DNA of 64,000 nucleotides, taken from NCBI GenBank assembly GCA_018435055.1, contig JAHDOA010000007.1:31853-95852 (forward strand), read 5' to 3'. Position 1 is the first letter of the stretch, and each line of letters begins with the position of its first letter. The translations under genes and the position numbers were made by a program. The notes under the pieces were generated by a model that did no database searches, was not told the origin of the DNA, and saw only the letters and a program-made list of their open reading frames with translations. Source of the DNA: Pelotomaculum sp. Its GTDB lineage: Bacteria; Bacillota; Desulfotomaculia; Desulfotomaculales; Pelotomaculaceae. Below are positions 4,140 through 36,657 of this stretch, in pieces.

Positions 4140-5314
4140 GCTATATGAAAAATCACAGCAGAGAGACTATAATATTATTTTTTAGTTTATTTTTAGTAAT
4201 GGTCGGCTTTGGCATTATCATTCCGATCCTTCCTTTTTTTGTTACGCGCCTTAACGGCAACGCAACAGCGCTGGGATTTTTAATGGCTTCTTATTCCCTG
4301 ATGCAATTTTTCTTTGCTCCATTCTGGGGAAGACTCTCTGATCGAATAGGCCGCCGTCCTGTTCTCCTCATCGGTTTAAGCGGCTATGGCATAACCTTTA
4401 TTCTTTTCGGCCTTTCAACCCAGTTATGGATGCTCTTTTCGGCCAGAATTTTATCCGGTATAATCTCTTCGGCCACCCTGCCGACGGCCATGGCTTATAT
4501 CTCTGATATAACAGCCAGCAAGGACAGGGCCGGGGGGATGGGAACAATGGGAGCGGCCATGGGCCTGGGTATGATCTTCGGACCTGCCCTGGGAGGATGG
4601 CTTGGCCACTACAGCTTCTCACTGCCGTTTTTCGTCGCCGGGGGCCTTGCCATACTCACCCTTCCATTTGCCTGGTTCTTCCTGACGGAATCTTTAAAGG
4701 AACCGGGTGTAAGTACCCAGGAAGGCCGGCGGCTGTCCCTCGAAATATCTAAAAATCCCCAGTTCCCTCTTTTTTTCGTCGCTTTTGTGGTCAGCTTTTC
4801 CATGGCCATGTTTGAGAGTACCTTTGCCCTATTTGCTGCGGCGAGGGTCGGTTTCGGCCCCAGGGAAATGGGACTTCTTTTTACCGTTATAGGTGTTCTG
4901 AGCGTAATCATTCAAGCAGGTATGATCGGCAGGCTTGTCAACAGGTTCGGCGATGCAATGGTGATTACTGCAGGTATCGTTATTTCTGTAATCGGTTTCC
5001 TCCTTCTCATGGTTGCTCCCAATGCTGCTTTTATAATCGTTTACGCCGGAATATTCACCGCGGGAAACAGCCTGCTGCGGCCCAGTATTTCCACACTGGT
5101 CACCAAGACGGCACGTGAAGAAGAGCAAGGTTCCGCGGTGGGAATAATGCAGTCCTTTGACAGTCTGGGACGTATCCTGGGCCCGGTAACCGGCGGCATT
5201 GTCTTTGATTTTAACATCAACTTCCCTTACCTGCTCGGGATAATGGTATTAATTGCAGTTTTACTCTTTTTCAAACGCCACCAGGCCAATTTTTCGATGG
5301 AATCACGTGCATGA
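4136..5314 (+). CDS. MFS drug:H+ antiporter (TetA/Bmr-like)
   Basis: 12 hydrophobic segments, motif A GRLSDRIGRRPVL; ATGA overlap with the GH3 stop. Confidence 0.92.
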   Translation: MSYMKNHSRETIILFFSLFLVMVGFGIIIPILPFFVTRLNGNATALGFLMASYSLMQFFFAPFWGRLSDRIGRRPVLLIGLSGYGITFILFGLSTQLWMLFSARILSGIISSATLPTAMAYISDITASKDRAGGMGTMGAAMGLGMIFGPALGGWLGHYSFSLPFFVAGGLAILTLPFAWFFLTESLKEPGVSTQEGRRLSLEISKNPQFPLFFVAFVVSFSMAMFESTFALFAAARVGFGPREMGLLFTVIGVLSVIIQAGMIGRLVNRFGDAMVITAGIVISVIGFLLLMVAPNAAFIIVYAGIFTAGNSLLRPSISTLVTKTAREEEQGSAVGIMQSFDSLGRILGPVTGGIVFDFNINFPYLLGIMVLIAVLLFFKRHQANFSMESRA

Positions 5315-5443: not shown

Positions 5444-7984
5444 TTAGAAGACGGGAGCCCAGGTGACCAGGGGCAGCTCTGTAAGGGGGAAATCCCTGCT
5501 GTCCGGCCTTACGCGCACCGTATATCCGTAGGAACCCTGCGGCAGGGTCAGGCTGCCTTTATAACGGTAGACATTGTCGTTTATTTCTCCTTCCAGAGTC
5601 ATCGGCACAACTACGATATTTCTCAGCTCACCTTCCACTGCCTCCCCGTACACAATCTCCAGGATGACGCTTCTGGTATAGATCAGGCCCAGGTTGACCA
5701 CAGCGGATATCTTGATCTCCTCGCCGGCGAGCATTTTTGTCCTGCCGCTTGATTCCACTGAAACAAAAGAAACCTGGTCCCAGTAATCAATTATAAGCTT
5801 TTTGAAGTTGGCGGCATGATTAGCCAGGTAATTTTCATTTGCCGCGAACATTTTTCCCCGGTCAATTGCCGGTATGTAAAAGCGATCCGTGTATTCCGCC
5901 ACCATCCGGCCGGTGTTAAAGACCGGAGCGATAGTTTTTATCGTTTCTTTCATCATGCGCACCCACTCCGGTGAAAACCCGTCTTCCCTGCGGTAATACA
6001 TCGGTATAACTTTTTCCTCCAGCACGCTGTAGAGAGAAAAGCAATCGTCCCGGTCCTGGATATCTTCGTTTAAATAGGCTTGGTCGGAACCAACAATAAA
6101 ACCGTTATTTCCATTATAGGCTTCAGGCCACCAACCGTCCAAAGTACTGACATTGATTAACCCGTTTAACGACGCCTTCAGACCGCTGGTACCGCTGGCC
6201 TCCATCGGGCGGCGCGGCGTGTTGAGCCATACGTCCACCCCCTGTACCAGGTGGCGGGCAAGGTGGATGTCGTAGTTTTCCAGCAGCACTATCTTGCCCC
6301 TGAATCCGGGCGTTTGTGAAAAATCATATATTTTTTTAATTAACTCCTGCCCCAGTGTATCGGCCGGGTGGGCCTTGCCGGAAAACACAAACCGCACCGG
6401 GCGTTCATTGTTGTTAAGCAGGCGTTCCAGCCTTTCCGGGGTGCGAAAAAGAAGGGTCGCTCTCTTATATGTGGCAAAGCGCCGGGCAAAACCAATGGTC
6501 AGGATATCAGGGTCAAGATAGCCGTCTACCTCCAGTATGCTCTGGATCGGCTCACGGTTGCGCCGGCGTTGCTGCTTCAGGTTAGCCCGCGCAAAGGAGA
6601 TCATCCTCTCCTTGAGCAACCGGTGCACTCTCCACAGTTCCCGGTCAGGTATCAGGTCAACCTTATTCCATATTTCTTGTTCTCTAAGCTGCTCAAACCA
6701 CCTTTTGCCGAGATAGCGGGCAAAAAGCTCTTTGATTTCCGCAGCCAGCCAGGTCCCTACATGGACACCGTTGGTAACCGAGGTAACCGGTATCTCCTCA
6801 GGGTGTAACCTGCTATACTCGGATTGGAACATTTTTCTCGACACCTCTCCGTGCAGGCGGCTTACACCATTGGTGAGGAAAGCGTGACGGAGCGCCAGCA
6901 GGGTCATGTTGAAGCTGTTTCGCTCCGCATCCCAGGCTAAACCTTTAAGTGTTTTAAGATCTATACCCATTTCGCTAATCATGTGTGCAAAATATTTTAT
7001 TATAAATTCTTCGGTGAAAAGGTCATGGCCTGCCGGCACGGGCGTATGGGTGGTAAAAATAGTTGAGGCCCGCACGACCTCCCTGGCGGTTTCAAAAGAA
7101 ACCATGTAGCGCATCAGTTCCCTGATCCGCTCAATAATTAAAAAGGCGGCGTGACCTTCGTTGATGTGCCAGACGCTGGGGTTAATCCGCATCGCCCGCA
7201 GCGCCCTCACACCCCCAACTCCCAGGACAATCTCCTGGGAAAGGCGGTACTCCCGGTCACCACCGTACAACTGTCCTGTCAGGTTGCGGTCCTGCGGCGA
7301 ATTCTTAGAAGTATCGGTGTCAAGCAAATAGACTGTGACTCTTCCCACTTTTACCTGCCAGACCTGGACAAACACCGTCCTCCCCTGCAATTCCACTGTC
7401 ACGTCGAGCTGGCTGCCGTCGGGGTTGTGCACAGGCGTTATCGGCAGTTCATAAAAATTGAGGTGCGGGTACTCGGCCTCCTGCATCCCTTCGCTGTTTA
7501 TCCTCTGATGAAAATAGCCCTGTTTATACAGCAGGCCGACACCGATAAACGGCAAACCCAGGTCACTGGCTGATTTACAGTGGTCCCCCGCTAAAAGGCC
7601 CAGTCCCCCGGAATAAATAGGGTGGGATTCATGCAGACCGAATTCGGCGGAAAAGTAGGCGATAATGTCCTCTCTATATTCAGGGTATTTCCCGTCAAAC
7701 CAGGTCTTCCGGCTTATGTAGCGGTCATATAAATCAAGCGTCCTCTTGTAAAGGACCAGGTAGTCATCATCATGCGCCGCTCTATCAAGGTCTTCCTTTT
7801 GGACGCGCATAAGAAATTTGACGGGGTTGTGCTCGACTTCCCGCCAGAGTTCAGGATTGATTGATCTGAAGAACTCGATGCCGGCCGGGCTCCAACTAAA
7901 CCAGAAATCATAAGCAATTTCTCTCAGCCGGCTGATTGGTTCCGGCAACCCGGGTGTTACGGATACTATACGGAAAGGAAACAT
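5444..7984 (-). CDS. glgP: alpha-glucan (glycogen) phosphorylase
   Basis: YFSAEFGLHESHPIYSGGLGLLAGD, HINEGHAAF and the PLP motif EASGTSGLKA. Confidence 0.96.
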   Translation of the reverse strand: MFPFRIVSVTPGLPEPISRLREIAYDFWFSWSPAGIEFFRSINPELWREVEHNPVKFLMRVQKEDLDRAAHDDDYLVLYKRTLDLYDRYISRKTWFDGKYPEYREDIIAYFSAEFGLHESHPIYSGGLGLLAGDHCKSASDLGLPFIGVGLLYKQGYFHQRINSEGMQEAEYPHLNFYELPITPVHNPDGSQLDVTVELQGRTVFVQVWQVKVGRVTVYLLDTDTSKNSPQDRNLTGQLYGGDREYRLSQEIVLGVGGVRALRAMRINPSVWHINEGHAAFLIIERIRELMRYMVSFETAREVVRASTIFTTHTPVPAGHDLFTEEFIIKYFAHMISEMGIDLKTLKGLAWDAERNSFNMTLLALRHAFLTNGVSRLHGEVSRKMFQSEYSRLHPEEIPVTSVTNGVHVGTWLAAEIKELFARYLGKRWFEQLREQEIWNKVDLIPDRELWRVHRLLKERMISFARANLKQQRRRNREPIQSILEVDGYLDPDILTIGFARRFATYKRATLLFRTPERLERLLNNNERPVRFVFSGKAHPADTLGQELIKKIYDFSQTPGFRGKIVLLENYDIHLARHLVQGVDVWLNTPRRPMEASGTSGLKASLNGLINVSTLDGWWPEAYNGNNGFIVGSDQAYLNEDIQDRDDCFSLYSVLEEKVIPMYYRREDGFSPEWVRMMKETIKTIAPVFNTGRMVAEYTDRFYIPAIDRGKMFAANENYLANHAANFKKLIIDYWDQVSFVSVESSGRTKMLAGEEIKISAVVNLGLIYTRSVILEIVYGEAVEGELRNIVVVPMTLEGEINDNVYRYKGSLTLPQGSYGYTVRVRPDSRDFPLTELPLVTWAPVF

Positions 7985-23829: not shown

Positions 23830-25209
23830 CTAGCCAACCATGATTTTTTCCTCAGGATAGCGCAGGTGTGACTTTTGTTTGGCCCTGGCCATAGCGAAAG
23901 CCAGGGTCAAGGGGCCCAGCCTGCCCAGGAACATGGTCATAATGATCAATATCCGGCCAAACGTGGTGAGATGGGTTGTTATACCCATAGTTAGGCCCAC
24001 TGTGCCGAAAGCTGATGTCGTTTCAAATAATAACGCCAGAAAATCAGCTTTTTCCGTAATTGTCAGCAACAGTGTCACCATAGTTACAAGACCGCCGGCA
24101 AGGAGAAGGATGGCCAGGGATTTGTATACCTGGTGTTGTCCAATCCGGCGCTGAAAAATCTCTGTATTTTCCTTTCCCCTGATTATGCACCAGACAGAAA
24201 CTACCAGGGCGCCAAAGGTGGTGGTCTTGATACCCCCGCCGGTAGAACCGGGGGAGGCGCCGATAAACATTAGAATAACTATTAAAAACTGGGTAGCAGA
24301 GTGCAGCGCTCCGATGTCAAGTGTATTGTATCCCGCTGTCCTGGGCGTGACTGCCTGGAAGTAAGAGGCCAGGACCTTGCCCGGCAGGCTCAGGCCCTGC
24401 AGGGTGTTGTTATATTCGAGAAGATAGAACATAATTGTGCCGGTTAAAATTAAGAAACCACTGACGGAAAGGACCAGTTTCGTGTGCAGCTGCAGGCGGC
24501 CTGATACCTTAAAATATTTGGCAACATCGACAATAACACTAAAACCTATGCCACCCAGGATGATCAGTGTGGTGACACAGATAGTAACTGTGGCGTCACT
24601 GGCGTAAGCGGTCAGGCTCTTGAACCCGCCAAAAAGATCAAAGCCGGCGTTATTAAAGGAAGATATGGAATGGAAAAGGCCAAACCACAGGCCCTTCTGC
24701 CAGCCCAGGTCATATGACCAGCGCAGCGAGAGAATAGCAGCAAAACTCAGTTCAGTTACAAAAGTAAAGAAAAGGACATGCCTGGCCAGCCTGACAATTC
24801 CGGCCAGGCTGGTATAATTCATGGATTCCTGGATAATGAGCCGCTGTTTCAAACCGATGCGGCGGCCTAAAAGCATATATAAAAATGTCGCCATGGTCAT
24901 AAAACCCAGGCCGCCAACCTGGATTAAGGCCAGAATCACTATATGCCCGAAGGTAGTCCAGTGCGTCCCCGTGTCCACCACTACCAGGCCGGTTACACAA
25001 ACGGCGGAGGTCGCCGTAAAAAGAGATGTTAAAAAATTTATATCTTTCCCGGGCTGCACAGCCAAAGGCAGTGACAGTAAAACGGCGCCGAGAAAAATAA
25101 TCGCGGCAAAACCGAGGACCAGAACCTGCGCAGGAGTTGCCCGCAGCGCAAATTTTTTTTCTGCGTCGGTTCCCAAGAGGGTGTACTCTTCTCCGTCTTC
25201 TATTTCCAT
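23830..25209 (-). CDS. TrkH/KtrB potassium channel subunit
   Basis: four filter loops: SAVCVTG, FNNAGF, TPRTAGY, SAFGTVG; MFLGRLG. Confidence 0.93.
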   Translation of the reverse strand: MEIEDGEEYTLLGTDAEKKFALRATPAQVLVLGFAAIIFLGAVLLSLPLAVQPGKDINFLTSLFTATSAVCVTGLVVVDTGTHWTTFGHIVILALIQVGGLGFMTMATFLYMLLGRRIGLKQRLIIQESMNYTSLAGIVRLARHVLFFTFVTELSFAAILSLRWSYDLGWQKGLWFGLFHSISSFNNAGFDLFGGFKSLTAYASDATVTICVTTLIILGGIGFSVIVDVAKYFKVSGRLQLHTKLVLSVSGFLILTGTIMFYLLEYNNTLQGLSLPGKVLASYFQAVTPRTAGYNTLDIGALHSATQFLIVILMFIGASPGSTGGGIKTTTFGALVVSVWCIIRGKENTEIFQRRIGQHQVYKSLAILLLAGGLVTMVTLLLTITEKADFLALLFETTSAFGTVGLTMGITTHLTTFGRILIIMTMFLGRLGPLTLAFAMARAKQKSHLRYPEEKIMVG

Positions 25210-25259
25210 AGTAATTTCTCCCGTAAATCATCATTAATTAAAAACGCAGAATGACGGGG

Positions 25260-26642
25260 TCAGCCTACAATAATATGCTCTTTTACATAATGGTACCTGT
25301 CTTCCGGCTTCCGCCCCCGAAACAAAAACAACAGGGGGATAAACCCGATACGGCCGATAAACATAAGTATAATCAGCACTATCTTGCCCGCAGTAGATAA
25401 ATTTGCGGTTATGCCCATAGAAAGGCCGGTTGTGCCGAAAGCTGAACAAACTTCAAAAAGGATTTCCATGGTTGTGAAATTTTCAATAGAAGAAAGTATA
25501 ATAACAGCAAACGCCATTAGTGTCACTGCGATAAAAAATACCATAAACGCTTTTATAATATCTTCCTGAAAAAGCTCCCGGCGGAATACCTTGACGCTCG
25601 ACTTACCCCTTAAAAACGCCAGCAAAGCAAGTACAAGCACGGCGAAAGTGGTTGTCCGGATGCCGCCGCCGCAGCTGCTTGGCGAGGCCCCGATAAACAT
25701 CAACAGACAAAAAAACAATAGCGTTGAATGGTTATATGCGCTGATATCCACCAGGCTGAAGCCGCCGCTTTTGGTTGTCAGGGACTGAAAAATTGATACT
25801 GTAATCTTTTGATACCAGGGCATCCCGGCCAGTGTGCCGTACTGTTCGGACTGCAGCACAAATATAAAACCAGCCAGAAGCAAAGCTAAGAAGGTGACTG
25901 TAGTTATCTTGGTATAGAGGGAAAACTTTAATTTTCTCTGTCTGCGCCAGGAATTAATGTTGGCGCTGACCTCCAGCAGCACGGGAAAACCGATGGCCCC
26001 CGCCAGCAATAATAAGCCAATAACACTTATTACTACATGGTCATGTTGAAAACCCTGCAAACTGTTGCCAAACAGCTCAAAACCACAGTTTGTAAAACCA
26101 GATATACTGTGAAAAAGACCCGAGCTCAGCGCGCTGAGAAAAGGCGCCTGATAATTACTCATGAAATGCAAGGTCAGGATCAGCGCGGCCAGCAGTTCAA
26201 AAATAACAGCAGCTTTAAAGATGAAAAGTATTAGATAAACCATCCCCTGCAGGGACAGCTGGTTCTGATCGGCGCTGATCATCATGCGCTCCCGCAGTCT
26301 GATTTGGTTCCCCCGCACGACGAAAAGCAGGGTGCCCAGGGCCATAATACCGATACCACCGAACTGCATTAAAAAAGCCAGGATAAACTTGCCGGTCGTG
26401 TTGAAGGTATCATTCGTATCGACGACGGCGAGCCCGGTAACGCTGATCGCGCTGGTGGCTGTAAAAAGGGCGTCAACCAGGCTGAAATCCACTCCCGGCT
26501 GCAGTGAAAAAGGCAAACTTATAAGCGCTGTCCCCAAAATCGCAAACAGCATGTACCCCAGCACAATCAACTGAAATGGGGTTATAGCCAGCTTGTTTCT
26601 TTTTATTCCTCTTAGATATAAACCCTGCTTTTTCAAAAGCAA
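25260..26642 (-). CDS. TrkH/KtrB potassium channel subunit (second paralogue)
   Basis: SAISVTG, FTNCGF, TTKSGGF, SAFGTTG; MFIGRIG. Confidence 0.9.
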   Translation of the reverse strand: MLLKKQGLYLRGIKRNKLAITPFQLIVLGYMLFAILGTALISLPFSLQPGVDFSLVDALFTATSAISVTGLAVVDTNDTFNTTGKFILAFLMQFGGIGIMALGTLLFVVRGNQIRLRERMMISADQNQLSLQGMVYLILFIFKAAVIFELLAALILTLHFMSNYQAPFLSALSSGLFHSISGFTNCGFELFGNSLQGFQHDHVVISVIGLLLLAGAIGFPVLLEVSANINSWRRQRKLKFSLYTKITTVTFLALLLAGFIFVLQSEQYGTLAGMPWYQKITVSIFQSLTTKSGGFSLVDISAYNHSTLLFFCLLMFIGASPSSCGGGIRTTTFAVLVLALLAFLRGKSSVKVFRRELFQEDIIKAFMVFFIAVTLMAFAVIILSSIENFTTMEILFEVCSAFGTTGLSMGITANLSTAGKIVLIILMFIGRIGFIPLLFLFRGRKPEDRYHYVKEHIIVG

Positions 26643-26888: not shown

Positions 26889-26914
26889 CAGTTTTAATAG
26901 AATATAGCCGCACT

Positions 26915-27086
26915 TAAAATAGTGAACAGGTCGCATTTAATAGCGTTAAAAGGGAAGTCCGGTATGATCCGGCGCGGTCCCGCCACTGTAAGGGGATGAA
27001 CTCTAAAATGTCACTGGTCAGGCTCAGCTGCCGGCCGGGAAGACAGAGCCGTCAAATGACCCTCAGCCAGGAGACCTGCCTGTTCT
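26915..27086 (+). promoter_or_regulatory. cobalamin riboswitch 1
   Basis: AAAGGGAAGTCCGG...CCGGCGCGGTCCCGCCACTGTAA...CACTGG...GGGAAG...AGCCAGGAGACCTGCC (B12 box); terminator-like hairpin at 27166-27197. Confidence 0.93.
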
Positions 27087-27254
27087 TTAATCACTAAAAT
27101 ACCTACGGTTGATAGGTAGTGATTGTTCAGGTCAAAGTTGTTATTACGAAAAACCTGGATGAACTGCCCCGTCCCCGTGTTTTAGGTCGGGGTTTTTGAT
27201 TTATATAAGGCTATGTGCGCATAAATTTTTGTGAGATGAGGATGGTGTTAGGGT

Positions 27255-28037
27255 TTGGTAAATGCTAGCCGGACTTCGTTGGAATATCTCCTGCCTGAAG
27301 CAGGCAAATGGCTTACACTGCAAGACGGACTGTACGCCATCCCGGGGCCCGGTTATATTCTGGTAACAGCCGTTACACCGTGGCTCACTGTTAATTCTGG
27401 AATAATTGGCGGCGGTATCAACTACAAGCGGTACTTTATAAACCGCCAGGTAGAAAAAGATTACACCTCGGACTTTCCAGCAGATGAGATGGCTGATTAC
27501 CTGACATCGCGCTTTGCGTCATACAAACCTGCCGCATCAGAATGGGCGGCACTGATGACAGCAGCCAGGGTAGTTGACGCGTGCTGGCTGAAAATAACAC
27601 ACCGGGACTGCCGGGCGCATGTGATAGTTACAGCTGGGGTCAACAACGCCTGCTCCGCCGGCGTTACCCCCTATTGCGTTCCCGGCAAATTAGCCCCCGG
27701 AACAATTAACATCATGTCCTTCTTCTCCCACGCCCTGACACCGGGCGCGCTGGTTAACGCCGTTCAGACGGTGACGGAAGCCAAAACCCAGATCTTGCGC
27801 GAGTTCAATATTACCTGCCCGGCAACGGGCGCCTTCGCCAGCGGGACAAACACCGACGCGACGTTAATAGCTGCCGCTACAGGCGCCCTTCTCCACGAAT
27901 ATGCCGGACCGGGGACATTAGCCGGTTATATACTCGCCTGCGGCGTACGCGCAGCGTTGACCCGGGCGCTTAAGACCTACCTGGCGCGGCAGGCGCAGGG
28001 CGTTTATGATGAAATCCCATGTAAAGATATTTTATGA
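27255..28037 (+). CDS. cbiZ: adenosylcobinamide amidohydrolase
   Basis: LMTAA, VTAGVNNA, PGTINI, VQTVTEAK, ASGTNTDA; under a B12 riboswitch. Confidence 0.8.
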   Translation: MVNASRTSLEYLLPEAGKWLTLQDGLYAIPGPGYILVTAVTPWLTVNSGIIGGGINYKRYFINRQVEKDYTSDFPADEMADYLTSRFASYKPAASEWAALMTAARVVDACWLKITHRDCRAHVIVTAGVNNACSAGVTPYCVPGKLAPGTINIMSFFSHALTPGALVNAVQTVTEAKTQILREFNITCPATGAFASGTNTDATLIAAATGALLHEYAGPGTLAGYILACGVRAALTRALKTYLARQAQGVYDEIPCKDIL

Positions 28038-28055
28038 TCTTGAAAGGAGTCTGTT

Positions 28056-29003
28056 ATGTTTAGAGAAAGGAAATCGTCTTTTTCTGCGCTGCTTTTTGTT
28101 TCATTAATCCTGTCTGTCACAATCCTGCTGCAGGGTTGCGGCCAGCCAATTAAATCATCCAGCGTCACAAGTTTTCCTATGCAAATTACTGATGATCTGG
28201 GCCGGACAGTAACAATCGAGGAGGCGCCCCGGCGCATTGTTTCCCTGGCGCCGGCTATCACTGAAAGCCTCTTCGCTCTGGGATTAGCTGACAAGGTAGT
28301 GGGCGTGACCAATTACTGTGACTATCCGGCTGAGGCTGCGACAAAACCAAAAATCGGCGGTTTTTCCACTCCGAATGTGGAACTGGTAGTGGCAGCCGGG
28401 CCGGATCTGGTCTTGGCGTCTACCATTAACGCCAATTATGTGCCGCAATTGGAAAATGCGGGCCTTACAGTGGTTACGGTAGAATCGCTGAACCTGGAAG
28501 AGGTACTGGATAACATTCGCCTGATCGGCAGGGTTAGCGGGGCGGCAGAAGCGGCAGACAGCCTGACGGCTGATATGAGGCAACGAATCGACAGCATTAC
28601 CGCCCAATTGAGTGGCCTTGCCGAAGAACAAAAGCCTGCAGTGTATTTTGAAATATGGCCGGATCCCCTTACTACGGGCGGCTCGAAAAGCTTTGTCAAC
28701 AGTCTCATAACTACGGCGGGGGGCAGAAACATCGCCGGCGACGTGGCTCGGGACTGGGTAAATTTGAGTCCCGAGATGGTGTTGGCCAGGGATCCCCAGG
28801 TGGCGATTTTATGCCACCACGGTTCATCCTTGCAAACTGTGGAAGAATTTAAAAACCGCACGGGCTGGGGACAGGTGTCCGCCATCAGGAATAACCGCAT
28901 CGGCCTGGTCAGCGACGAAAACACTGTGGTCCGCACCGGCCCGCGCGTGATAGAGGGTTTTGAATTTATTGCGAAATTGGTCCACCCCGACTTGATAAAA
29001 TAG
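28056..29003 (+). CDS. btuF: cobalamin ABC substrate-binding lipoprotein
   Basis: lipobox LQGC, RRIVSLAPAITE, VTNYCDYP, RTGPR. Confidence 0.88.
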   Translation: MFRERKSSFSALLFVSLILSVTILLQGCGQPIKSSSVTSFPMQITDDLGRTVTIEEAPRRIVSLAPAITESLFALGLADKVVGVTNYCDYPAEAATKPKIGGFSTPNVELVVAAGPDLVLASTINANYVPQLENAGLTVVTVESLNLEEVLDNIRLIGRVSGAAEAADSLTADMRQRIDSITAQLSGLAEEQKPAVYFEIWPDPLTTGGSKSFVNSLITTAGGRNIAGDVARDWVNLSPEMVLARDPQVAILCHHGSSLQTVEEFKNRTGWGQVSAIRNNRIGLVSDENTVVRTGPRVIEGFEFIAKLVHPDLIK

Positions 29004-29023
29004 AAAATTTAGGGGGGAATTAG

Positions 29024-30076
29024 TTGAACCAACATGACCGGAATTGGCGGCGGAGGGCGGTAGTATTCATATTGCCGGCCGCCCTGGGGCTGACAGTGAT
29101 TTTATGTACTACTATCGGCCCGGCGGGGATAGCTTTTACAGATGTGCTGACGATGCTGTTGCGCCGCTTACCCTGGATCGGCAACCTGATACCGCGCGGC
29201 GATTGGCCCGCAAACTATGAAATTATCGTTTTGCAAATGAGGCTGGCGCGGGTAATCCTGGCGGCCCTTGTCGGCGCAGGGCTGGCCGCCTCCGGTGTAG
29301 TCCTGCAGGGGCTTCTCATAAACCCGATGGCCGACCCTTATATCCTGGGTATTTCCCAGGGCGCCGCCCTCGGCGCAACAGTAGCCATGCTGTCACTTGG
29401 CGGGACAATAGCGCTGGGGATATATTCGGTCCCACTGGTGGCCTTTCTATGCGGCTTGGCCACGTCCATCATTGTCTACAACCTGGCCAGAGCAGGAAAC
29501 CGGGTGCAAATGTCCACCCTGCTCCTGGCCGGTATAGCAGCCGGGCTGTTTCTTTCATCCATAACCTCGTATCTCATGATTACCAGCGGGCAGAACGCCC
29601 ATCAGATACTTTTCTGGATGATTGGCGGTTTCTCCGGACGCGGCTGGGATCATGTAAAGATTTTGCTGCCATATATCCTGATCGGTTACTTCCTGATGCA
29701 TCTTTATGCCCGCAAGATGAACATAATCCTGCTGGGAGAAGAATCAGCGCAGCACCTGGGCATAGATGTGGAAAAAATGAAAAAAATTCTGCTGGCGGCG
29801 GCGACATTAACTACCGCTTCCGCCGTTTCAGTCAGCGGCGTTATTGCTTTTGTCGGGCTGATTATACCCCACGCGGTGCGTATGCTGGTTGGCCCCGATC
29901 ACCGGACGCTGCTCCCCGCAGCGGCTCTCACCGGAGCGATTTTCCTGGCTGTGGCGGACGCCCTGGCCCGCGTCGCAGCAGCCCCCGAGGAGATACCGGT
30001 AGGCATTATTACAGCCCTGTGCGGCGGTCCCTTTTTCATATACTTGTTAAGAAAAAAAAATCACCCGGGATATTAA
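29024..30076 (+). CDS. btuC: cobalamin ABC permease (FecCD family)
   Basis: RLARVILA, NPMADPYILGISQGA, IAFVGLIIPH, GGPFFIYLL. Confidence 0.88.
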   Translation: MNQHDRNWRRRAVVFILPAALGLTVILCTTIGPAGIAFTDVLTMLLRRLPWIGNLIPRGDWPANYEIIVLQMRLARVILAALVGAGLAASGVVLQGLLINPMADPYILGISQGAALGATVAMLSLGGTIALGIYSVPLVAFLCGLATSIIVYNLARAGNRVQMSTLLLAGIAAGLFLSSITSYLMITSGQNAHQILFWMIGGFSGRGWDHVKILLPYILIGYFLMHLYARKMNIILLGEESAQHLGIDVEKMKKILLAAATLTTASAVSVSGVIAFVGLIIPHAVRMLVGPDHRTLLPAAALTGAIFLAVADALARVAAAPEEIPVGIITALCGGPFFIYLLRKKNHPGY

Positions 30077-30124
30077 AGAGATTTCTCCGGCATCCGCTTT
30101 TTGCTGAACCTGGAGGTTAAGATA

Positions 30125-31381
30125 ATGGCTGTGACTTTAAAAATAAATGATATCGAATGTTCATACGGGGCGGTTAAAGTGCTGAACGGGTTGGCCTTTT
30201 CCATCAGCAGCGGTAGTTTTAACGGCATAATCGGCCCCAACGGCTCAGGCAAATCGACCCTTCTAAAATCACTGAGCCGGGTGCTTAAACCTGTCAAAGG
30301 GACAGTACTGCTGAACGAAAAGGACCTGTACAAAATGAGCCCGCAGGAAGTGGCCAAAAAAATGGCTGTGGTTCCCCAGGAAACTGCTGTAAACTTCTCA
30401 TTCACTGTTAAAGATATCGTTATTATGGGCCGTTCCCCTCACCTGGGACGCTTTGAAAACGAAGGGGAAAAAGATTTTGCAGCGGCCAGACAGGCAATGG
30501 CCTTGACCGGCACGCTCCACCTGGCTGACCGTCTGATCACGGCTGTCAGCGGCGGTGAAAGACAGAGAGTGATTATTGCCAGGGCTTTAACCCAGGAACC
30601 GGAGATAATCTTACTGGACGAGCCGACATCACACCTGGATATCAACCACCAGGTAGAAATCCTCAGCCTGCTGCAGCGGCTGAACAGGGAAAACAACCTG
30701 ACCATAATCTCAGTCTTTCACGATCTGAACCTGGCCGCGCAGTACTGCGACAGCCTTATTTTAATGAAAAAGGGCGCTGTATTCACTGTGGGCGAACCAG
30801 CGTCAGTACTTACATCCGGCAACATAAAGGAAGTATATGGCGCCAGTGTTTTAGTTAGAAAACATCCCGTGACCGGACGGCCTTCTATTATTCTTTTGGG
30901 CCGGGACACGCAGATTAATTCTAAAGGCGGTCGCATCCATGTGGTATGCGGCGGCGGGGCGGGCGCCTCCATACTGGGGCTGCTGGCCGGACAGGGTTAT
31001 GAGTTGACCGCCGGTGTGCTCAACGCGGGGGATGTCGACTGGGAAACGGCCAGGTTCCTGGATATCAGGATGGCTGAGGAAATACCCTTCCTGCCGGTTT
31101 CTGAACAAAGCCACCGGGAAAACATAAAACTCCTCACTGAAGCCGATGTATGCATACTGGCAAACATCCCCTTCGGCCGGGGTAACTTGAAAAACCTAGA
31201 GGCTGTCTCACTTGCCCTGGAACAGTCAAAACCTGTCTTGATTATTGAAGGACGGGATATCAAGGAGCGTGATTTTACGGGCGGCGAAGCGGAGCTGCTG
31301 TATAACGGGTTAAAGGAAAATGGCGCCCTTGTCCTGCGTGATGAAGCCGCTGTCCTGAATAAACTGCGGGATTATTTTTAA
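30125..31381 (+). CDS. btuD: cobalamin ABC ATPase with C-terminal extension
   Basis: GPNGSGKS, VSGGERQR, LLDEPTSHLD; about 170 extra C-terminal residues; GGAGG RBS before ATG 30125. Confidence 0.85.
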   Translation: MAVTLKINDIECSYGAVKVLNGLAFSISSGSFNGIIGPNGSGKSTLLKSLSRVLKPVKGTVLLNEKDLYKMSPQEVAKKMAVVPQETAVNFSFTVKDIVIMGRSPHLGRFENEGEKDFAAARQAMALTGTLHLADRLITAVSGGERQRVIIARALTQEPEIILLDEPTSHLDINHQVEILSLLQRLNRENNLTIISVFHDLNLAAQYCDSLILMKKGAVFTVGEPASVLTSGNIKEVYGASVLVRKHPVTGRPSIILLGRDTQINSKGGRIHVVCGGGAGASILGLLAGQGYELTAGVLNAGDVDWETARFLDIRMAEEIPFLPVSEQSHRENIKLLTEADVCILANIPFGRGNLKNLEAVSLALEQSKPVLIIEGRDIKERDFTGGEAELLYNGLKENGALVLRDEAAVLNKLRDYF

Positions 31382-31436: not shown

Positions 31437-31480
31437 AAGTTGTAGCAAATATTTGACAATTGAGTGATTACTGTTTTACA

Positions 31481-31672
31481 AACCGCTCAATTCTAATAGT
31501 TAGAAGCGGGGGAACCAATCTTTACCGGGGTGAATCAATTCAGTAGTTAGTAGTTAGTAGTCAGTAGTCGAACACCATCTGACAACAGACTACCCACAAC
31601 CGACTACCGAATCGTAGGGCTATTCTTTCAGCCCGAATCCGTCAGCTAACCTCGTCAGCGTTGAAAGGGAAG
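31481..31672 (+). promoter_or_regulatory. c-di-AMP (ydaO/yuaA) riboswitch
   Basis: CCGCTCAAT...GCGGGGGAACCA...GGGGTGAATC...GTAGGGCTA...CCCGAATCCGTCAGCTAACCTCGTCAGCG consensus blocks. Confidence 0.92.
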
Positions 31673-31738
31673 CAGTTTAATTTATATATGCCGCATAATT
31701 CTGCCATGCGCTCATGCATTATATTGCGCGTTCCTTTT

Positions 31739-31801: not shown

Positions 31802-32665
31802 ATGTCCGCCAAAGTTAGAGTAGCGCTTTTTGGATTTGGCCGTATGAGTCAGGCTGCAGCCAGGAATTTGCTAAGAAACCCGTCTGTAAAGCTTGTGCTG
31901 GTGGCAAGCCGCAGCGGCGGCGAAAAAATAGGCAGGGATATAGGGGATATCCTGGGGATTCCGGCCACAGGGTTAATTGTCAAGGGAGCTGATCAACTTG
32001 CCCAGTCTCTGGCTGCGGCGCGTCCCAGTATTGTAGTCGATTTCACCAACCCCGAAGCAAGCCTCACCAACCTGAAAACAGCAGCCAAATACGGCGCTCA
32101 CTTGATTGTGGGCACCACGGGGTATACAAAATTCCAGACCGAAGCGTTGCGTTCCATAGCGAATATGTATGAAGTAAGCCTGATTATGGCGCCCAACCTT
32201 TCTATCGGCATAAACGTGCTGATAGATTCAGCGAAAAAGATGGCGAAAGTGCTGAAGGGATTTGATATTGAGGTAATTGAGGAACACCACCGGCACAAGA
32301 AGGATGCTCCTTCCGGCACCGCCATCCGGCTGGCCAGGTTAATTGCTGAAGGGGTGGGTATAAATCCTGAGAAAGAATTGATTTTTGGCAGGCAGGGAAA
32401 TAAAAGCGCCAAAGGAAGAGAAATCGCCATACATGCCATACGTGGCGGCGGAACCATAGGAGTGCATAAAATTGTCTTTATCAGTGACAACGAACGACTG
32501 GAAATAAAACATGAATCATTAAACCGCAACGCTTTTACCGACTGCTTAATAAAAGTAATAGAATATGTGCACTCCCATCCACCCGGCATATATTCAGTTG
32601 AAGAAATTTTAGGTCTGGGAACACCTGCGCCTGTTGCAAAGATGGTAAAAATGGATGTATCGTAG
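31802..32665 (+). CDS. dapB: 4-hydroxy-tetrahydrodipicolinate reductase
   Basis: VDFTNP, VGTTG, APNLSIG, catalytic EHHRHKKDAPSGTA. Confidence 0.9.
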   Translation: MSAKVRVALFGFGRMSQAAARNLLRNPSVKLVLVASRSGGEKIGRDIGDILGIPATGLIVKGADQLAQSLAAARPSIVVDFTNPEASLTNLKTAAKYGAHLIVGTTGYTKFQTEALRSIANMYEVSLIMAPNLSIGINVLIDSAKKMAKVLKGFDIEVIEEHHRHKKDAPSGTAIRLARLIAEGVGINPEKELIFGRQGNKSAKGREIAIHAIRGGGTIGVHKIVFISDNERLEIKHESLNRNAFTDCLIKVIEYVHSHPPGIYSVEEILGLGTPAPVAKMVKMDVS

Positions 32666-32742
32666 CTGGCCTTTTTTATCCCAACCAATATTTTTTATAT
32701 GGACAAATCTACTGGTTGATGTTAGGATGTTCTTAATTAAAA

Positions 32743-32916
32743 AATACTGTCCAGGTACTCCGGAGATGGAGTGTGAAAAGGGAACCGGGTGCGAATCCCG
32801 GACGGTCAGGCCACTGTATGTGGGGAGCGGCTCCCTTGATGCCACTGGGTTAACGGTTAGCCCGGGAAGGCGGGAGTATGGCTGAGATCCACAAGTCAGG
32901 AGACCTGCCTGGTCAG
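32743..32916 (+). promoter_or_regulatory. cobalamin riboswitch 2 (no credible downstream CDS)
   Basis: AGGT...AAAAGGGAACCGGGTGCGAATCCCGGACGGTCAGGCCACTGTA...GCCACTGGG...CCCGGGAAGGC...AAGTCAGGAGACCTGCC. Confidence 0.92.
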
Positions 32917-33053
32917 TTGGTACCGCCTTCCGTGTAAAGGCCGGGCTGTTTTTTGTTTTTCACAGTGTTTTAGCTTTGGGAAACCCGGATTTCTCAGCGA
33001 AGGAGCCGGGTTTTCCATTTGTCTCCTTCTTCCAAAATCATTTTATTTTATTT

Positions 33054-33080
33054 ATCCGTCCATTTGGACGGATTTTTTTT
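33054..33080 (+). terminator. intrinsic terminator ending the riboswitch-2 transcript
   Basis: ATCCGTCC-ATTT-GGACGGAT followed by a T tract. Confidence 0.85.
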
Positions 33081-33174
33081 GTCCACCAAACGGGATTTGA
33101 CAATTTTAAGAATAAATATATGCTAATATCAGAGGAGTATTTTACTCTAAAGAGTTTATCTGGGAGTGATAATT

Positions 33175-33711
33175 GTGAACAGACGCAGGAGAGCCAGCCG
33201 CAAATTTAAGCAAGCATGCCAACCGGAGAAACAGCGCCGCATTGATGCTGAACAACCGGCTGCATCCAAATTAGCAGGAGAAGAACCCGTTCAGGAAAAA
33301 CCAGCCCGGGCAGAAAAAGACCAGGCAGTAAAAACAAGCGGCCTCCCGCTTGCCGTGATCCTGGAGATACTAGCCACAGAATATGAGGATGGAAGACAGG
33401 GGGACGCGCTGTGCAGGGTAGCGGCGCGCCTGGCCGAGGAAAGCGGGGAAATCGCCGGATACCGGGCCAGATGGGACGAGGCCCTGGAAGAACCCTCCGG
33501 CAACCTTTCAATATACCTGTTTGACCGCCGCCAGGCTATGGAACTGATTCGCTATCATCAGAACAAGGGGAACAGGGAAGCCTTGAAAAAAGAAGAGGAC
33601 AAACTCCGGTTAGCAGAAGGACGCCTGCTCCTCGGTCAGTCCCAGCCGCTGAGAATAACCAGCGACGACCTTGAGAAACTGGAGGAATTCATCAGGGAAA
33701 GCGGGTTCTAG
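33175..33711 (+). CDS. hypothetical protein
   Basis: 178-aa ORF; GTG 33175 preceded by GGGAGTG; own TTGACA at 33097; no family recognised. Confidence 0.7.
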   Translation: MNRRRRASRKFKQACQPEKQRRIDAEQPAASKLAGEEPVQEKPARAEKDQAVKTSGLPLAVILEILATEYEDGRQGDALCRVAARLAEESGEIAGYRARWDEALEEPSGNLSIYLFDRRQAMELIRYHQNKGNREALKKEEDKLRLAEGRLLLGQSQPLRITSDDLEKLEEFIRESGF

Positions 33712-34471: not shown

Positions 34472-35878
34472 GTGAAGGTTTTGCCCGAACAGTACCAGGC
34501 AGCGATAGCCACTGCAATTTTTCTGATTACCTATACCATAATAGTATCCGAGAGGATACACCGTACAGTTGCCGCCCTTACCGGGGCGGTGCTGGTGGTA
34601 TTATTAGGCATAATCAATCTGGAGATATCGATCGAGGCTATTGACTTCAATACAATCGGCCTGCTGGTTGGGATGATGATTATTGTAGGGATAACCAGGC
34701 ATACCGGTGTGTTCGAGTTTCTAGCAATAAAGGCCGCCAAAAATGCGAAAGGGGAGCCGCTGAAAATCATCGCTGCCCTTTCGCTGGTTACGGCCGTACT
34801 ATCAGCGTTATTAGATAATGTCACTACCGTACTGTTAATTGTGCCTGTCACTTTTGCCATCGCCAGGCAGCTGAGAATCTCGCCGCTGCCATTTCTGATC
34901 GCTGAGATTATTGCCTCCAACATCGGCGGCACTGCCACATTAATTGGAGACCCGCCGAACATCATGATCGGCAGCGCTGTCGGTCTTGGGTTCATGGACT
35001 TTGTTTTCAACCTGACCCCGGTTGTTGTAGTAATATACGTTTTGACCATCCCCCTGCTCCAGCTCATCTACCGGAAACAACTGTCAGCCAGGGAAGACCT
35101 GCAGGAAAATATAATGCGTTTGAATGAGCGCGAAGAGCTAAAGGACCCCGTCCTGCTGCGAAAAAGTCTTCTAGTACTCGCCCTAACCGTATTAGGCTTT
35201 GTCCTGCACCAGTATGTCCACCTTGAATCGTCGGTGATAGCTCTCTCAGGCGCCACATTATTGCTGCTGATCACAAAGGAGGACCCCGAACGCGCCTTGC
35301 AGATCGTGGAATGGCCGGTTATCTTTTTCTTTATCGGGCTTTTTGTGTTGGTTGGAGCCCTGGAAGAGGTGGGTGTAATAGAAACGGTGGCCAGGTGGTC
35401 TCTTGAGGTAACGGGCGGAAACGTGCTCCCGGCAGGTATACTGATCCTCTGGCTGTCCGCTGTTGCATCATCGTTCGTTGACAACATCCCATTTGTGGCC
35501 ACGATGATCCCGCTGATCCAGGATTTGGGCCGTATCGGCGGTATTGCCGACCTGAATTTTTTGTGGTGGGCTTTGTCTTTGGGCGCCTGTCTGGGCGGCA
35601 ACGGGACCATCATCGGCGCCTCCGCCAATGTTGTAGTAATTGGTATGGCCGAAAAGAGGGGCCTTCATATAGGCTTTGTTGACTATTTTAAGATTGCCTT
35701 TCCGCTAATGCTTCTTTCTATCGTAATATCAACCGGATATCTTCTTTTCTGGTATGTTTTCCACACCCTGACCGCAATGCTCGTTACGCTAGGAACCGGA
35801 ATAATCCTGGCGCTGCTTACCAGGACGGTAACCGGCGTGCTGCTAAGAATGAGGCAAAGGGAAAACGCAAGCGGATAA
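34472..35878 (+). CDS. ArsB/NhaD (IT superfamily) ion transporter
   Basis: IDFNTIGLLVGMM, SALLDNVTTV, SNIGGTATLIGDPPNI, SSFVDNIPF, ACLGGNGT. Confidence 0.9.
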   Translation: MKVLPEQYQAAIATAIFLITYTIIVSERIHRTVAALTGAVLVVLLGIINLEISIEAIDFNTIGLLVGMMIIVGITRHTGVFEFLAIKAAKNAKGEPLKIIAALSLVTAVLSALLDNVTTVLLIVPVTFAIARQLRISPLPFLIAEIIASNIGGTATLIGDPPNIMIGSAVGLGFMDFVFNLTPVVVVIYVLTIPLLQLIYRKQLSAREDLQENIMRLNEREELKDPVLLRKSLLVLALTVLGFVLHQYVHLESSVIALSGATLLLLITKEDPERALQIVEWPVIFFFIGLFVLVGALEEVGVIETVARWSLEVTGGNVLPAGILILWLSAVASSFVDNIPFVATMIPLIQDLGRIGGIADLNFLWWALSLGACLGGNGTIIGASANVVVIGMAEKRGLHIGFVDYFKIAFPLMLLSIVISTGYLLFWYVFHTLTAMLVTLGTGIILALLTRTVTGVLLRMRQRENASG

Positions 35879-35898
35879 GGGATATATCCATACATATC

Positions 35899-36546
35899 TT
35901 ATTTTTCTTCCAGGTCTTTCAGCTTATTGTTACGGCCAACCACTACCAGGACATCCCCCTCCCGCACCACCTGTTTGGCGCCAGGGGATATAATAACATC
36001 ATTACCCCGCCTGATGGCCAGCACAGTTACCCCGTGTTTCACCCTCAAAGCGCCTTCAGCAAGCGTTTTACCGAATAAACCATCCGGCGCCGTCATCTCG
36101 ATAATGCTGTAGTCAGGCGACAGGTTGATCTGGTCCATAATATTCTTCGAAACAAGAGCCTGGGCCACACGCACACCCATATCCCGCTCGGGAAAGATCA
36201 CCTTGTCGGCGCCGACCCTTTCCAGGACCTTTCCATGTAGTTCGGTTATAGCCTTGGACACCACTTTTTTAACACCCATGTCTTTGAGCATTACGGTAAC
36301 CAGGATGTTGCTCTGGACGTCCTGCCCGATAGCTACGATCACCACGTCGAAATTGCGGATGCCGAGCGCTCTTAGCGCCTGCTCATCCATGGCGTCCACC
36401 TGGACCGCGTGGGTAACCCTGTCCATGATGTTGTTTACTTTATCCTCGTTTGTGTCCACCGCCAGAACATCATACCCCATTCTGGCAAGTGTTAAGGCTA
36501 AACTTGACCCGAACCGTCCGAGGCCGATAACGGCAAATTGTTTCAT
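35899..36546 (-). CDS. TrkA/KtrA RCK regulatory subunit
   Basis: MKQFAVIGLGRFG, VIFPERDMG, C-terminal RCK_C. Confidence 0.93.
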   Translation of the reverse strand: MKQFAVIGLGRFGSSLALTLARMGYDVLAVDTNEDKVNNIMDRVTHAVQVDAMDEQALRALGIRNFDVVIVAIGQDVQSNILVTVMLKDMGVKKVVSKAITELHGKVLERVGADKVIFPERDMGVRVAQALVSKNIMDQINLSPDYSIIEMTAPDGLFGKTLAEGALRVKHGVTVLAIRRGNDVIISPGAKQVVREGDVLVVVGRNNKLKDLEEK

Positions 36547-36657
36547 TTTCCCAACCACCTATACTGTTTTTCTAACTTATTCTTTTATATACTGTGCGTT
36601 TCACCCTGGATATTATGTAACATATAAGTTATAGCATACTGCCAAACGCAACAGCTG

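Follow-up and report, generated by a model that had tools for sequence, protein, structure and literature searches.

The 64,000-nucleotide (nt) stretch of Pelotomaculum sp. DNA considered here (positions 31,853 to 95,852 of contig JAHDOA010000007.1, hereafter the window) contains a cobalamin (B12) riboswitch which leads no gene. It is well supported that this riboswitch belongs to a free-standing, strongly promoted, non-coding RNA which exists in at least two isoforms. The aptamer is followed by a terminator (T1), a weak hairpin (H1), a strong hairpin (H2), a CU-rich tract, a spacer and a second terminator (T2; Table 1). We regard the whole as a B12-riboswitch-controlled RNA gene of a Pelotomaculum-like syntroph, the effector of which would be the 3' module behind T1, acting in trans, and would give this reading a probability of roughly one half.

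An initial annotation, made from the sequence alone, had proposed that the switch leads a non-coding RNA rather than a gene, and this has held, the unit being independent, conserved and highly expressed. The parts which it listed are also there. The B12 aptamer is intact over the full RF00174 model, the T-tract lies at 32949–32960 with RNA 3' ends just behind it (32962–32965), the strong hairpin noted at 32980–33015 corresponds to H2 (32977–33017), the CU-rich anti-Shine-Dalgarno-like tract noted at 33020–33033 spans 33016–33033, and the strong terminator at 33054–33080 is present as a sequence element (T2). The more specific mechanism, that of a trans-acting small RNA (sRNA), is partly supported with revised coordinates.

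Table 1. Features of the riboswitch RNA unit and of its neighbours in the window (aa, amino acids)
Feature	Position	Strand	Remarks
Riboswitch RNA promoter	32700..32728	+	-35 TGGACA (32700-32705), extended -10 TGTTAGGAT (32720-32728); consensus scan
Cobalamin riboswitch aptamer	32736..32926	+	Rfam RF00174, 122.6 bits, E 2.7e-30, model 1-189, full length
GGAAGGCGG inside aptamer	32865..32873	+	putative antiterminator partner of CCGCCTTCC (32923-32931)
B12 box AGTCAGGAGACCTGCC	32894-32909	+	within aptamer
Terminator T1	32923..32963	+	hairpin CCGCCTT/AAGG-CGG 32923-32943, outer stem to 32948; U-tract 32949-32960; folds
H1, weak short hairpin between T1 and H2	32964..32976	+	sequence variable
H2, strong hairpin (TGGGAAACCCGG ... 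CCGGGTTTTCCA), then TTTTCCATTT	32977..33020	+	fold
CU-rich tract CATTTGTCTCCTTCTTCC	33016..33033	+	invariant, anti-Shine-Dalgarno-like; consensus CATTT(G/A)TCTCCTTCTTCC; 18 nt
U/A-rich spacer	33034..33053	+	50% identity, length variable
Terminator T2 (ATCCGTCC ATTT GGACGGAT + T8)	33054..33081	+	stem 33054-33073, T run to 33080; terminator scan
Promoter and 178-aa hypothetical gene	33097..33711	+	TTGACA-16-TATGCT 33097-33124; likely start GTG 33175
First B12 riboswitch (gene-leading)	26911-27097		Rfam scan of window
c-di-AMP riboswitch	31474-31674		Rfam, 88.8 bits
dapB	31802-32665		TIGR00036, 239.8 bits; bona fide

Promoter and aptamer

Membership of the aptamer in family RF00174 follows from its covariance score, the gathering score of the family being 31.5 bits against the 122.6 bits obtained, and the match takes in the full aptamer including the B12 box. 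In six GTDB relatives and in four metagenome contigs this aptamer is found at the corresponding position [105–127 bits]. Covariation between the L5 and L13 kissing loops was not evident when the alignment of relatives was judged by eye.

The promoter motifs GTGGACAAAT and TGTTAGGAT are kept in all full-length relatives. In five sequencing runs the RNA contigs begin at 32729–32732, the depth over dapB upstream being 0. In one strain variant an 18-nt tandem duplication (GATGCTAGGATGTTCTTA) at 32717 doubles the -10 region of the promoter (L067 1006–1060; DNA run X40; L numbers denote related genomic loci and X numbers sequencing runs). In run X31 the RNA contig begins further upstream (32719), as if the first copy of the -10 were used.

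Transcripts of the unit

The RNA evidence is drawn from metatranscriptome assemblies (Logan contigs). The predominant species is a short RNA of about 233 nt, extending from about 32730 to 32963. It is best seen in X25, where a contig covering 32731–32965 has a depth of 192 as against 0–5 for the flanking genes. Since this contig reads ...TTTTTCAC and then passes directly into the Illumina adapter AGATCGGAAGAG, the RNA must end at C32963. The same form was recovered from X26 (32729–32963, depth 14), X32 (to 32962, depth 178) and X37 (to 32962), contig ends thus falling at 32962–32965 in four runs, and was further seen in X27, X29, X31, X38 and X39. The gene-leading switch at 26911 gives no comparable accumulation in the same runs.

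A rarer, longer form of about 285–295 nt is represented by four contigs which cross T1 and end, with no unaligned overhang, at 33013 (X28), 33020 (X30), 33012 (X34) and 33012 (X35). A short RNA ending at the aptamer-proximal terminator together with a longer isoform is the pattern of EutX and Rli55. Isoforms of about 210 and 340 nt had been predicted from the sequence: the short one does end at the T-tract, if at about 233 nt, but the 340-nt form ending at T2 was not seen, the long form being the one just described.

Related organisms give a similar picture. In X50, from a species of the L007 type, the riboswitch RNA has a depth of 81 and gives way to adapter right behind the T1 U-tract, at precisely the homologous position. 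The depth over dapB is 7–10 in this run; it is zero for about 180 nt (L007 5165–5341), and the contig of the next gene (depth 9.6) begins about 20 nt after the predicted start site. Against riboswitch RNA depths of 192, 178, 81 and 14 in the runs quoted, the flanking genes stay at 0–10. Another L007-type contig (X57) extends to the middle of the CU tract. In X51 and X54, from an L004-like strain, a single contig begins in dapB, crosses the switch and enters H2, so that transcription from upstream can also enter the module. The pure-culture transcriptomes X44 and X45 gave nothing at the locus, nor did the 1% of reads sampled from the raw-read runs X47–X49 (0 reads), and no L002-type RNA was present in four runs.

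The abundance of the short form raises the question of whether the B12-bound aptamer RNA is itself the product, either acting in trans in the manner of SreA and SreB or buffering cobalamin, with T1, H2 and T2 as stacked terminators that shield the promoter of the neighbouring gene from the very strong one of the riboswitch RNA. In several independent runs this RNA reaches 8 to more than 40 times the level of the flanking mRNAs, and one finds three serial terminators within 120 nt and no transcription between them and the start of the next gene. Terminated riboswitch leaders, however, often accumulate without having a function and contig depths are crude; furthermore, the invariance of the CU tract and the sequence conservation of the H2 stems and of the AGGA side of the loop would be left unexplained. 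We consider this explanation unlikely.

T1 and the proposed switch

Across relatives the T1 hairpin shows 91% identity, and 98.9% of its alignment cells are paired. The strain which dominates the metatranscriptomes has G for T at 32935 in the T1 loop (CCGTGGA, as in L001/L067), a change that does not affect the stem. The CCGCCTTCC strand can pair either with AAGG-CGG, forming T1, or with GGAAGGCGG. The latter pairing comprises nine perfect pairs and appears when the short RNA is folded to minimum energy without constraints; the Rfam alignment pairs GGC and GGGAG of the 32865–32873 stretch within the folded aptamer. We infer from the fold that GGAAGGCGG and CCGCCTTCC might constitute an antiterminator.

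According to this model the B12-bound aptamer would sequester GGAAGGCGG, CCGCCTTCC would form the T1 hairpin and transcription would stop, that is, the element would be an OFF switch. Without B12 the GGAAGGCGG–CCGCCTTCC antiterminator would pair and the polymerase would go on to add H1 and H2 of the 3' module. The prevalence of the short form in corrinoid-rich habitats agrees with this, the usual OFF-switch logic.

Conservation of the 3' module

The complete module (promoter, aptamer, T1, H1, H2, CU tract, spacer and T2) was found in 13 distinct Pelotomaculum/Desulfotomaculaceae sequences (the window, L001/L067, L002/L066, L003, L004, L005, L006, L007/L068/L070–72, L069, L073/L074, L075, L077 and L078). 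Its upstream neighbour is dapB, an ABC ATPase gene directly (L069, L073, L077) or an unrelated region (L075). Downstream, every carrier locus has a conserved promoter and a gene for a protein of 175–180 aa immediately behind the module.

Mean pairwise identity was calculated for 11 of these sequences, the four-fold degenerate sites of the neighbouring gene serving as reference (0.47). The CU tract (0.98) and the H2 stems (0.92–0.93) head the list together with the T1 hairpin (0.91), followed by T2 (0.72), the H2 apex (0.62), H1 (0.55) and the spacer (0.50). Judged from these identities, the 3' extension has been kept under purifying selection.

The minimum-energy fold gives H2 (32977–33017) 12 basal and 5 apical pairs, and a folded stretch of 191 nt which includes it has a z-score of -3.4. 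H2 has the shape of an intrinsic terminator, with an A-tract, a GC core (CCCGG/CCGGG) and the U-rich tail TTTTCCATTT, and the four read-through contigs end within its U-tract, which argues that H2 is a terminator or else forms the 3' end of the long isoform. Covariance in relatives, proposed in the initial annotation as a check, was found in the basal helix, all cells of which are paired (100%), compensatory changes from GC to AU or the reverse occurring in four sequences and between CG and UA in one. Since most H2 pairs are invariant this support is modest. The 3' side of the loop is purine-rich (GGAGGAA, GAAGGAG or CGAGGAA) and includes AGGA in every case, while the pyrimidines facing it vary in sequence and register.

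H1 consists of three pairs in the window and of 5–11 pairs in relatives, where the stems differ in sequence (AAGGT/ACCTT, ACAGGT/ACCTGT, TTTTCACAGGT/ACCTGTGAAAA). In several relatives it competes for the A-tract of H2, which frees the U-tract.

The CU tract is the most conserved non-aptamer element of the module. As one would expect of a single-stranded pyrimidine seed, it is unpaired in the consensus fold as well as 98% pairwise identical. It occurs once in the window, 0.09 matches with three or fewer mismatches being expected by chance. A search with nhmmer of the window and all loci for a second copy of H2 plus CU tract returned only the modules themselves and one weak match in L068. T2 is kept in all relatives with altered stem sequences. 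Matches of the tail to known RNA families in Rfam were all below threshold and at chance level, and these were set aside.

Three relatives bear on the history of the module. In L010 it has been cleanly deleted, only a T2-like terminator being left after dapB (4862–4960); in L080 a deletion extends from inside dapB into T2 (2266–2400); and in L078 (1700–1850) the module is kept beside what appears to be a decayed remnant of dapB. The losses in L010 and L080 are independent.

One might suppose that the switch is a decaying leader, still transcribed but functionless after loss of its gene. Its orphan position beside a B12 uptake operon and its absence from L010 and L080 would suit such a relic. 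The initial annotation had itself named a B12-related gene directly behind the switch in relatives, with an unconserved tail, as the mark of a deletion scar. In no relative examined does a B12 gene or any other gene lie between switch and T2, so that this objection does not apply, and the tail is strongly constrained: the full module has been retained although neutral sites are near saturation (0.47), with an invariant 18-mer, compensatory changes in H2 and a strong promoter. We would give the relic a slight chance at best.

ANTAR-like features and protein binding

The apical loop of H2, AGCGAAGGAGC, had been compared with the ANTAR element. The sequence is real; it is not kept in relatives, and the resemblance fails. 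ANTAR substrates are hexaloop hairpins in which loop positions 1 and 4 are conserved, G4 being obligatory (PMC8934654). The apical loops of H2 measure 4–9 nt and the loops of H1 3–6 nt, without conserved positions 1 and 4, and an ANTAR site was therefore rejected. The search for ANTAR proteins which had been suggested gave none among the 49 open reading frames (ORFs) scanned in the window; eut and pdu genes were likewise absent from this set, and neither a eut/pdu locus nor an ANTAR two-component regulator was found among the called genes of related loci.

The long form could still be a protein sponge, the GGA/AGGA side of the H2 loop titrating an ANTAR regulator, CsrA or the 178-aa protein encoded next to it. 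The architecture parallels that of EutX and Rli55, and AGGA is kept where the opposing pyrimidines vary. The adjacent gene, furthermore, co-occurs with the module in every carrier, and its product has a disordered, basic N-terminus. On the other side stand the size of the loops, which do not fit the ANTAR motif, and the lack of ANTAR or eut genes in the window; a lone GGA site would make a poor CsrA sponge, and the 178-aa protein matches no family or fold and persists where the module is deleted. A sponge thus seems to us quite unlikely.

Small ORFs

The initial annotation had seen no ORF with a usable ribosome-binding site (RBS). This stands insofar as there is no conserved ORF on either strand between switch and T2, but a minus-strand ORF with a perfect Shine-Dalgarno (SD) sequence had been overlooked. 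On the plus strand, two candidates (TTG 33019, and ATT 33017 with the loop AAGGAG as SD) were rejected, their start codons being missing in relatives; TTG 33019 is present in this strain only. The SD of such ORFs would lie inside H2 at a spacing of 12–13 nt, and their lengths vary.

The minus-strand ORF (33018 to 32896, 40 aa) has an ATG with a perfect SD before it, formed by the CU tract when this is read as its reverse complement. It is conceivable, then, that the CU tract is in reality the RBS (GGAAGAAGGAGAYAAATG) of a small gene antisense to the expression platform. SD and ATG are properly spaced in all 13 sequences, gene callers annotate a product of 41 aa in L073 and L077, and the CU tract lies outside most of the plus-strand RNA. 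The predicted peptides, however, are 8, 15, 16, 18, 22, 35, 40 or 41 aa long, and L005 and L007 carry a frameshift; such similarity of residues as exists is what the hairpin arms impose, and a compensatory E/K change matches the RNA helix. There is no convincing promoter and the start codon abuts a strong hairpin. The contig boundaries fit a plus-strand unit, and so does the orientation of the adapter if the library was dUTP-stranded. An antisense gene is in our opinion highly improbable.

The downstream gene

The exact 178-aa product of the downstream gene occurs in the records with no start other than 33175. Its homologues (P0001–P0051) are restricted to this lineage and are 175–180 aa long, and their gene is a regular neighbour of the corrinoid uptake operon as well as of the module. 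The protein has an arginine-rich, disordered basic N-terminus (residues 1–54) and a C-terminal domain of six helices, confidently predicted (AlphaFold, pLDDT 73.5). It has no match in Pfam or NCBIfam and no PDB fold match below E 0.5, and the notion that it is a recognisable RNA-binding protein was dropped on these grounds.

This gene had been credited with promoter elements of its own, in agreement with the motif TTGACA-16-TATGCT at 33097–33124 and with the zero RNA depth between the two units in a related species. The promoter is kept even in L010 and L080, where the module has been deleted. A classical cis-acting riboswitch would have a gene directly downstream on the same transcript, and here there is none. 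Control in cis might nevertheless be exerted on the 178-aa gene by read-through of T1, H2 and T2 or by promoter interference, and the strict synteny of the two at every module locus speaks for it. Three terminators intervene, however, the gene has its own promoter also in module-less genomes, and no RNA covers 5165–5341 of L007 though both units are expressed. We therefore hold control in cis to be very unlikely.

Possible function in trans

Since the 3' module is strongly constrained and leads no gene, regulation in trans would be its most economical function. In this reading the 3' module would be the effector of a trans-acting regulator. The B12-free RNA would expose the purine-rich AGGA loop of H2, and passage of the polymerase beyond H2 would add the invariant CU tract as far as T2. 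Most probably the anti-SD-like CU tract, or the 3' tail ...CAUUUGUCUCC, would pair with purine-rich ribosome-binding regions of mRNAs, presumably those which need a different setting when B12 is scarce.

Several observations weigh against this reading. Metatranscriptome assemblies carry no strand information, give only a crude measure of depth and come here from B12-replete habitats. Not one RNA contig reaches T2 among the 23 RNA-labelled runs with RNA matching this locus or its L007 homologue, although contig assemblies would miss rare isoforms and RNAs of about 60 nt. The CU tract is mostly uncovered, in no RNA contig is it complete, and the furthest contig ends at the equivalent of about 33026; as the long-form contigs stop at 33012–33020 the tract must lie at or beyond the observed 3' ends, and the seed mostly outside the RNAs seen. 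The ligand response of T1, and hence its dependence on B12, stands as a proposal: the strand beside the T1 U-tract has three possible partners, so that thermodynamics alone does not fix whether the switch is ON or OFF. The module must also be dispensable, having been lost in two relatives.

Nor did the search for targets help. A pattern search allowing up to three mismatches and a sliding RNAduplex scan gave nothing that stands out in the window. A perfect complement of 17 nt to the CU tract is present in L068 (6761–6777), where it covers the last codons and stop (PEEGDK*) of a minus-strand cupin gene (6758–7105) 5.7 kb away. The C-terminus PEEGDK* is family-wide, and this 3' end was rejected as a target. 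In P. propionicicum, a carrier of the module, synonymous changes have eroded the complement; in L083 and in Desulforudis, both module-less, the complement is present. It thus gives no evidence of co-evolution and is at most a candidate.

Two variants should be mentioned. Read-through RNA might be cleaved after H2, freeing an anti-SD sRNA of about 60 nt (CU tract plus T2) which standard RNA-seq would miss. Alternatively, the abundant aptamer RNA might buffer or report the corrinoid pool, the switch merely tuning its own length and the CU tract serving a separate purpose. Even taken together we think these decidedly unlikely.

Host and genomic context

The genomes closest to the locus are those of Pelotomaculum propionicicum, Ca. 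Syntrophopropionicum and metagenome-assembled genomes of Desulfotomaculaceae. Carriers of the module include P. propionicicum strains MGP and C1 (L002 and L005) and Ca. Syntrophopropionicum ammoniitolerans. DNA runs carrying the locus come from digesters, sludge, wastewater and landfill.

The first B12 riboswitch of the window heads a corrinoid salvage and uptake operon (27255–31381) composed of cbiZ, btuF-like and btuC-like genes and a corrinoid ABC ATPase gene. The two B12 switches showed no similarity in their expression platforms. The operon is followed by a cyclic di-AMP (c-di-AMP) riboswitch, dapB, the orphan B12 switch, the 178-aa gene and, on the opposite strand, a Usp gene.

The c-di-AMP riboswitch lies directly 5' of dapB, and the pair is kept in all close relatives as well as in a Spirochaetia bin (L028, L032). 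dapB would be an unusual member of a c-di-AMP regulon, tying this messenger to diaminopimelate and cell-wall synthesis. Genes for ion homeostasis are also found near the locus in the window: two trkH genes (23830–26642), trkA (35899–36558), a transporter of the ArsB/CitMHS type (34472–35878) and Usp. Riboswitches for Na+ (RF03071) occur near the locus in relatives, not in the window (L002 3360–3416, L005 3091–3147, L008 1691–1751 and 5533–5590, L066 and L069).

Significance and comparison with known systems

In the literature searched we met no account of an element of this kind from Pelotomaculum or the Desulfotomaculia. To our knowledge few riboswitch-controlled stand-alone RNAs have been characterised (EutX/Rli55, AspocR), all of them from Bacilli and following eut/pdu logic. 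The present one is a lineage-wide, highly expressed example, with a different, non-ANTAR 3' module, from uncultured or hard-to-grow syntrophic propionate oxidisers of anaerobic digesters. The propionate pathway of the syntroph depends on B12. Should the RNA indeed act in trans, it would tie post-transcriptional control to the B12 status of organisms that rely on a B12 enzyme for their core catabolism. Being so abundant in metatranscriptomes, the riboswitch RNA would also be a natural reporter of the availability of B12 in such communities. The invariant 18-mer just past the ends of the RNAs seen poses a concrete puzzle that can be put to the test.

AspocR is a B12-riboswitch-controlled antisense RNA of Listeria. 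As there, a B12 riboswitch would gate the elongation of a non-coding transcript; unlike AspocR, the Pelotomaculum RNA has its downstream gene on the same strand and behind terminators, and has no antisense target.

The SAM riboswitches SreA and SreB of Listeria and the SAM-I riboswitch/sRNA of Desulfovibrio vulgaris (bioRxiv 10.1101/803072) resemble it in the accumulation of a terminated riboswitch RNA with a possible action in trans. These switches also lead genes in cis, whereas the Pelotomaculum switch leads none, and here the element best conserved outside the aptamer comes after the first terminator.

With the anti-SD sRNAs (RF02278, a toxic sRNA of Betaproteobacteria, and the C-rich RsaE/RoxS of Firmicutes) the segment 33020–33080 shares a 5' pyrimidine motif of the UGUCUCCU type, a spacer and an intrinsic terminator. 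It matches the full RF02278 model below threshold, the score [25.5 bits, E 0.003] being far below the gathering score of 50; moreover, that family belongs to an unrelated phylum, and the Pelotomaculum segment has no separate promoter and was not seen as RNA.

The closest parallels are EutX of Enterococcus faecalis and Rli55 of Listeria monocytogenes, in which a constitutively promoted B12 aptamer gives a ligand-induced short form without the effector and a longer form which carries it (PMC5821096). Like these, the Pelotomaculum RNA has its own promoter and a 5' cobalamin aptamer, is non-coding and exists as a short form and a longer, 3'-structured one. The dual-hexaloop ANTAR site and the eut context were both looked for and are absent, there being no eut locus or EutV/W nearby, and the RNA, while it appears to work like EutX and Rli55, is not a member of their family. 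It lies instead between a corrinoid operon (cbiZ-btuFCD) and a hypothetical gene in a syntrophic member of the Desulfotomaculia, and its 3' extension consists of one terminator-like hairpin followed by an invariant CU tract.

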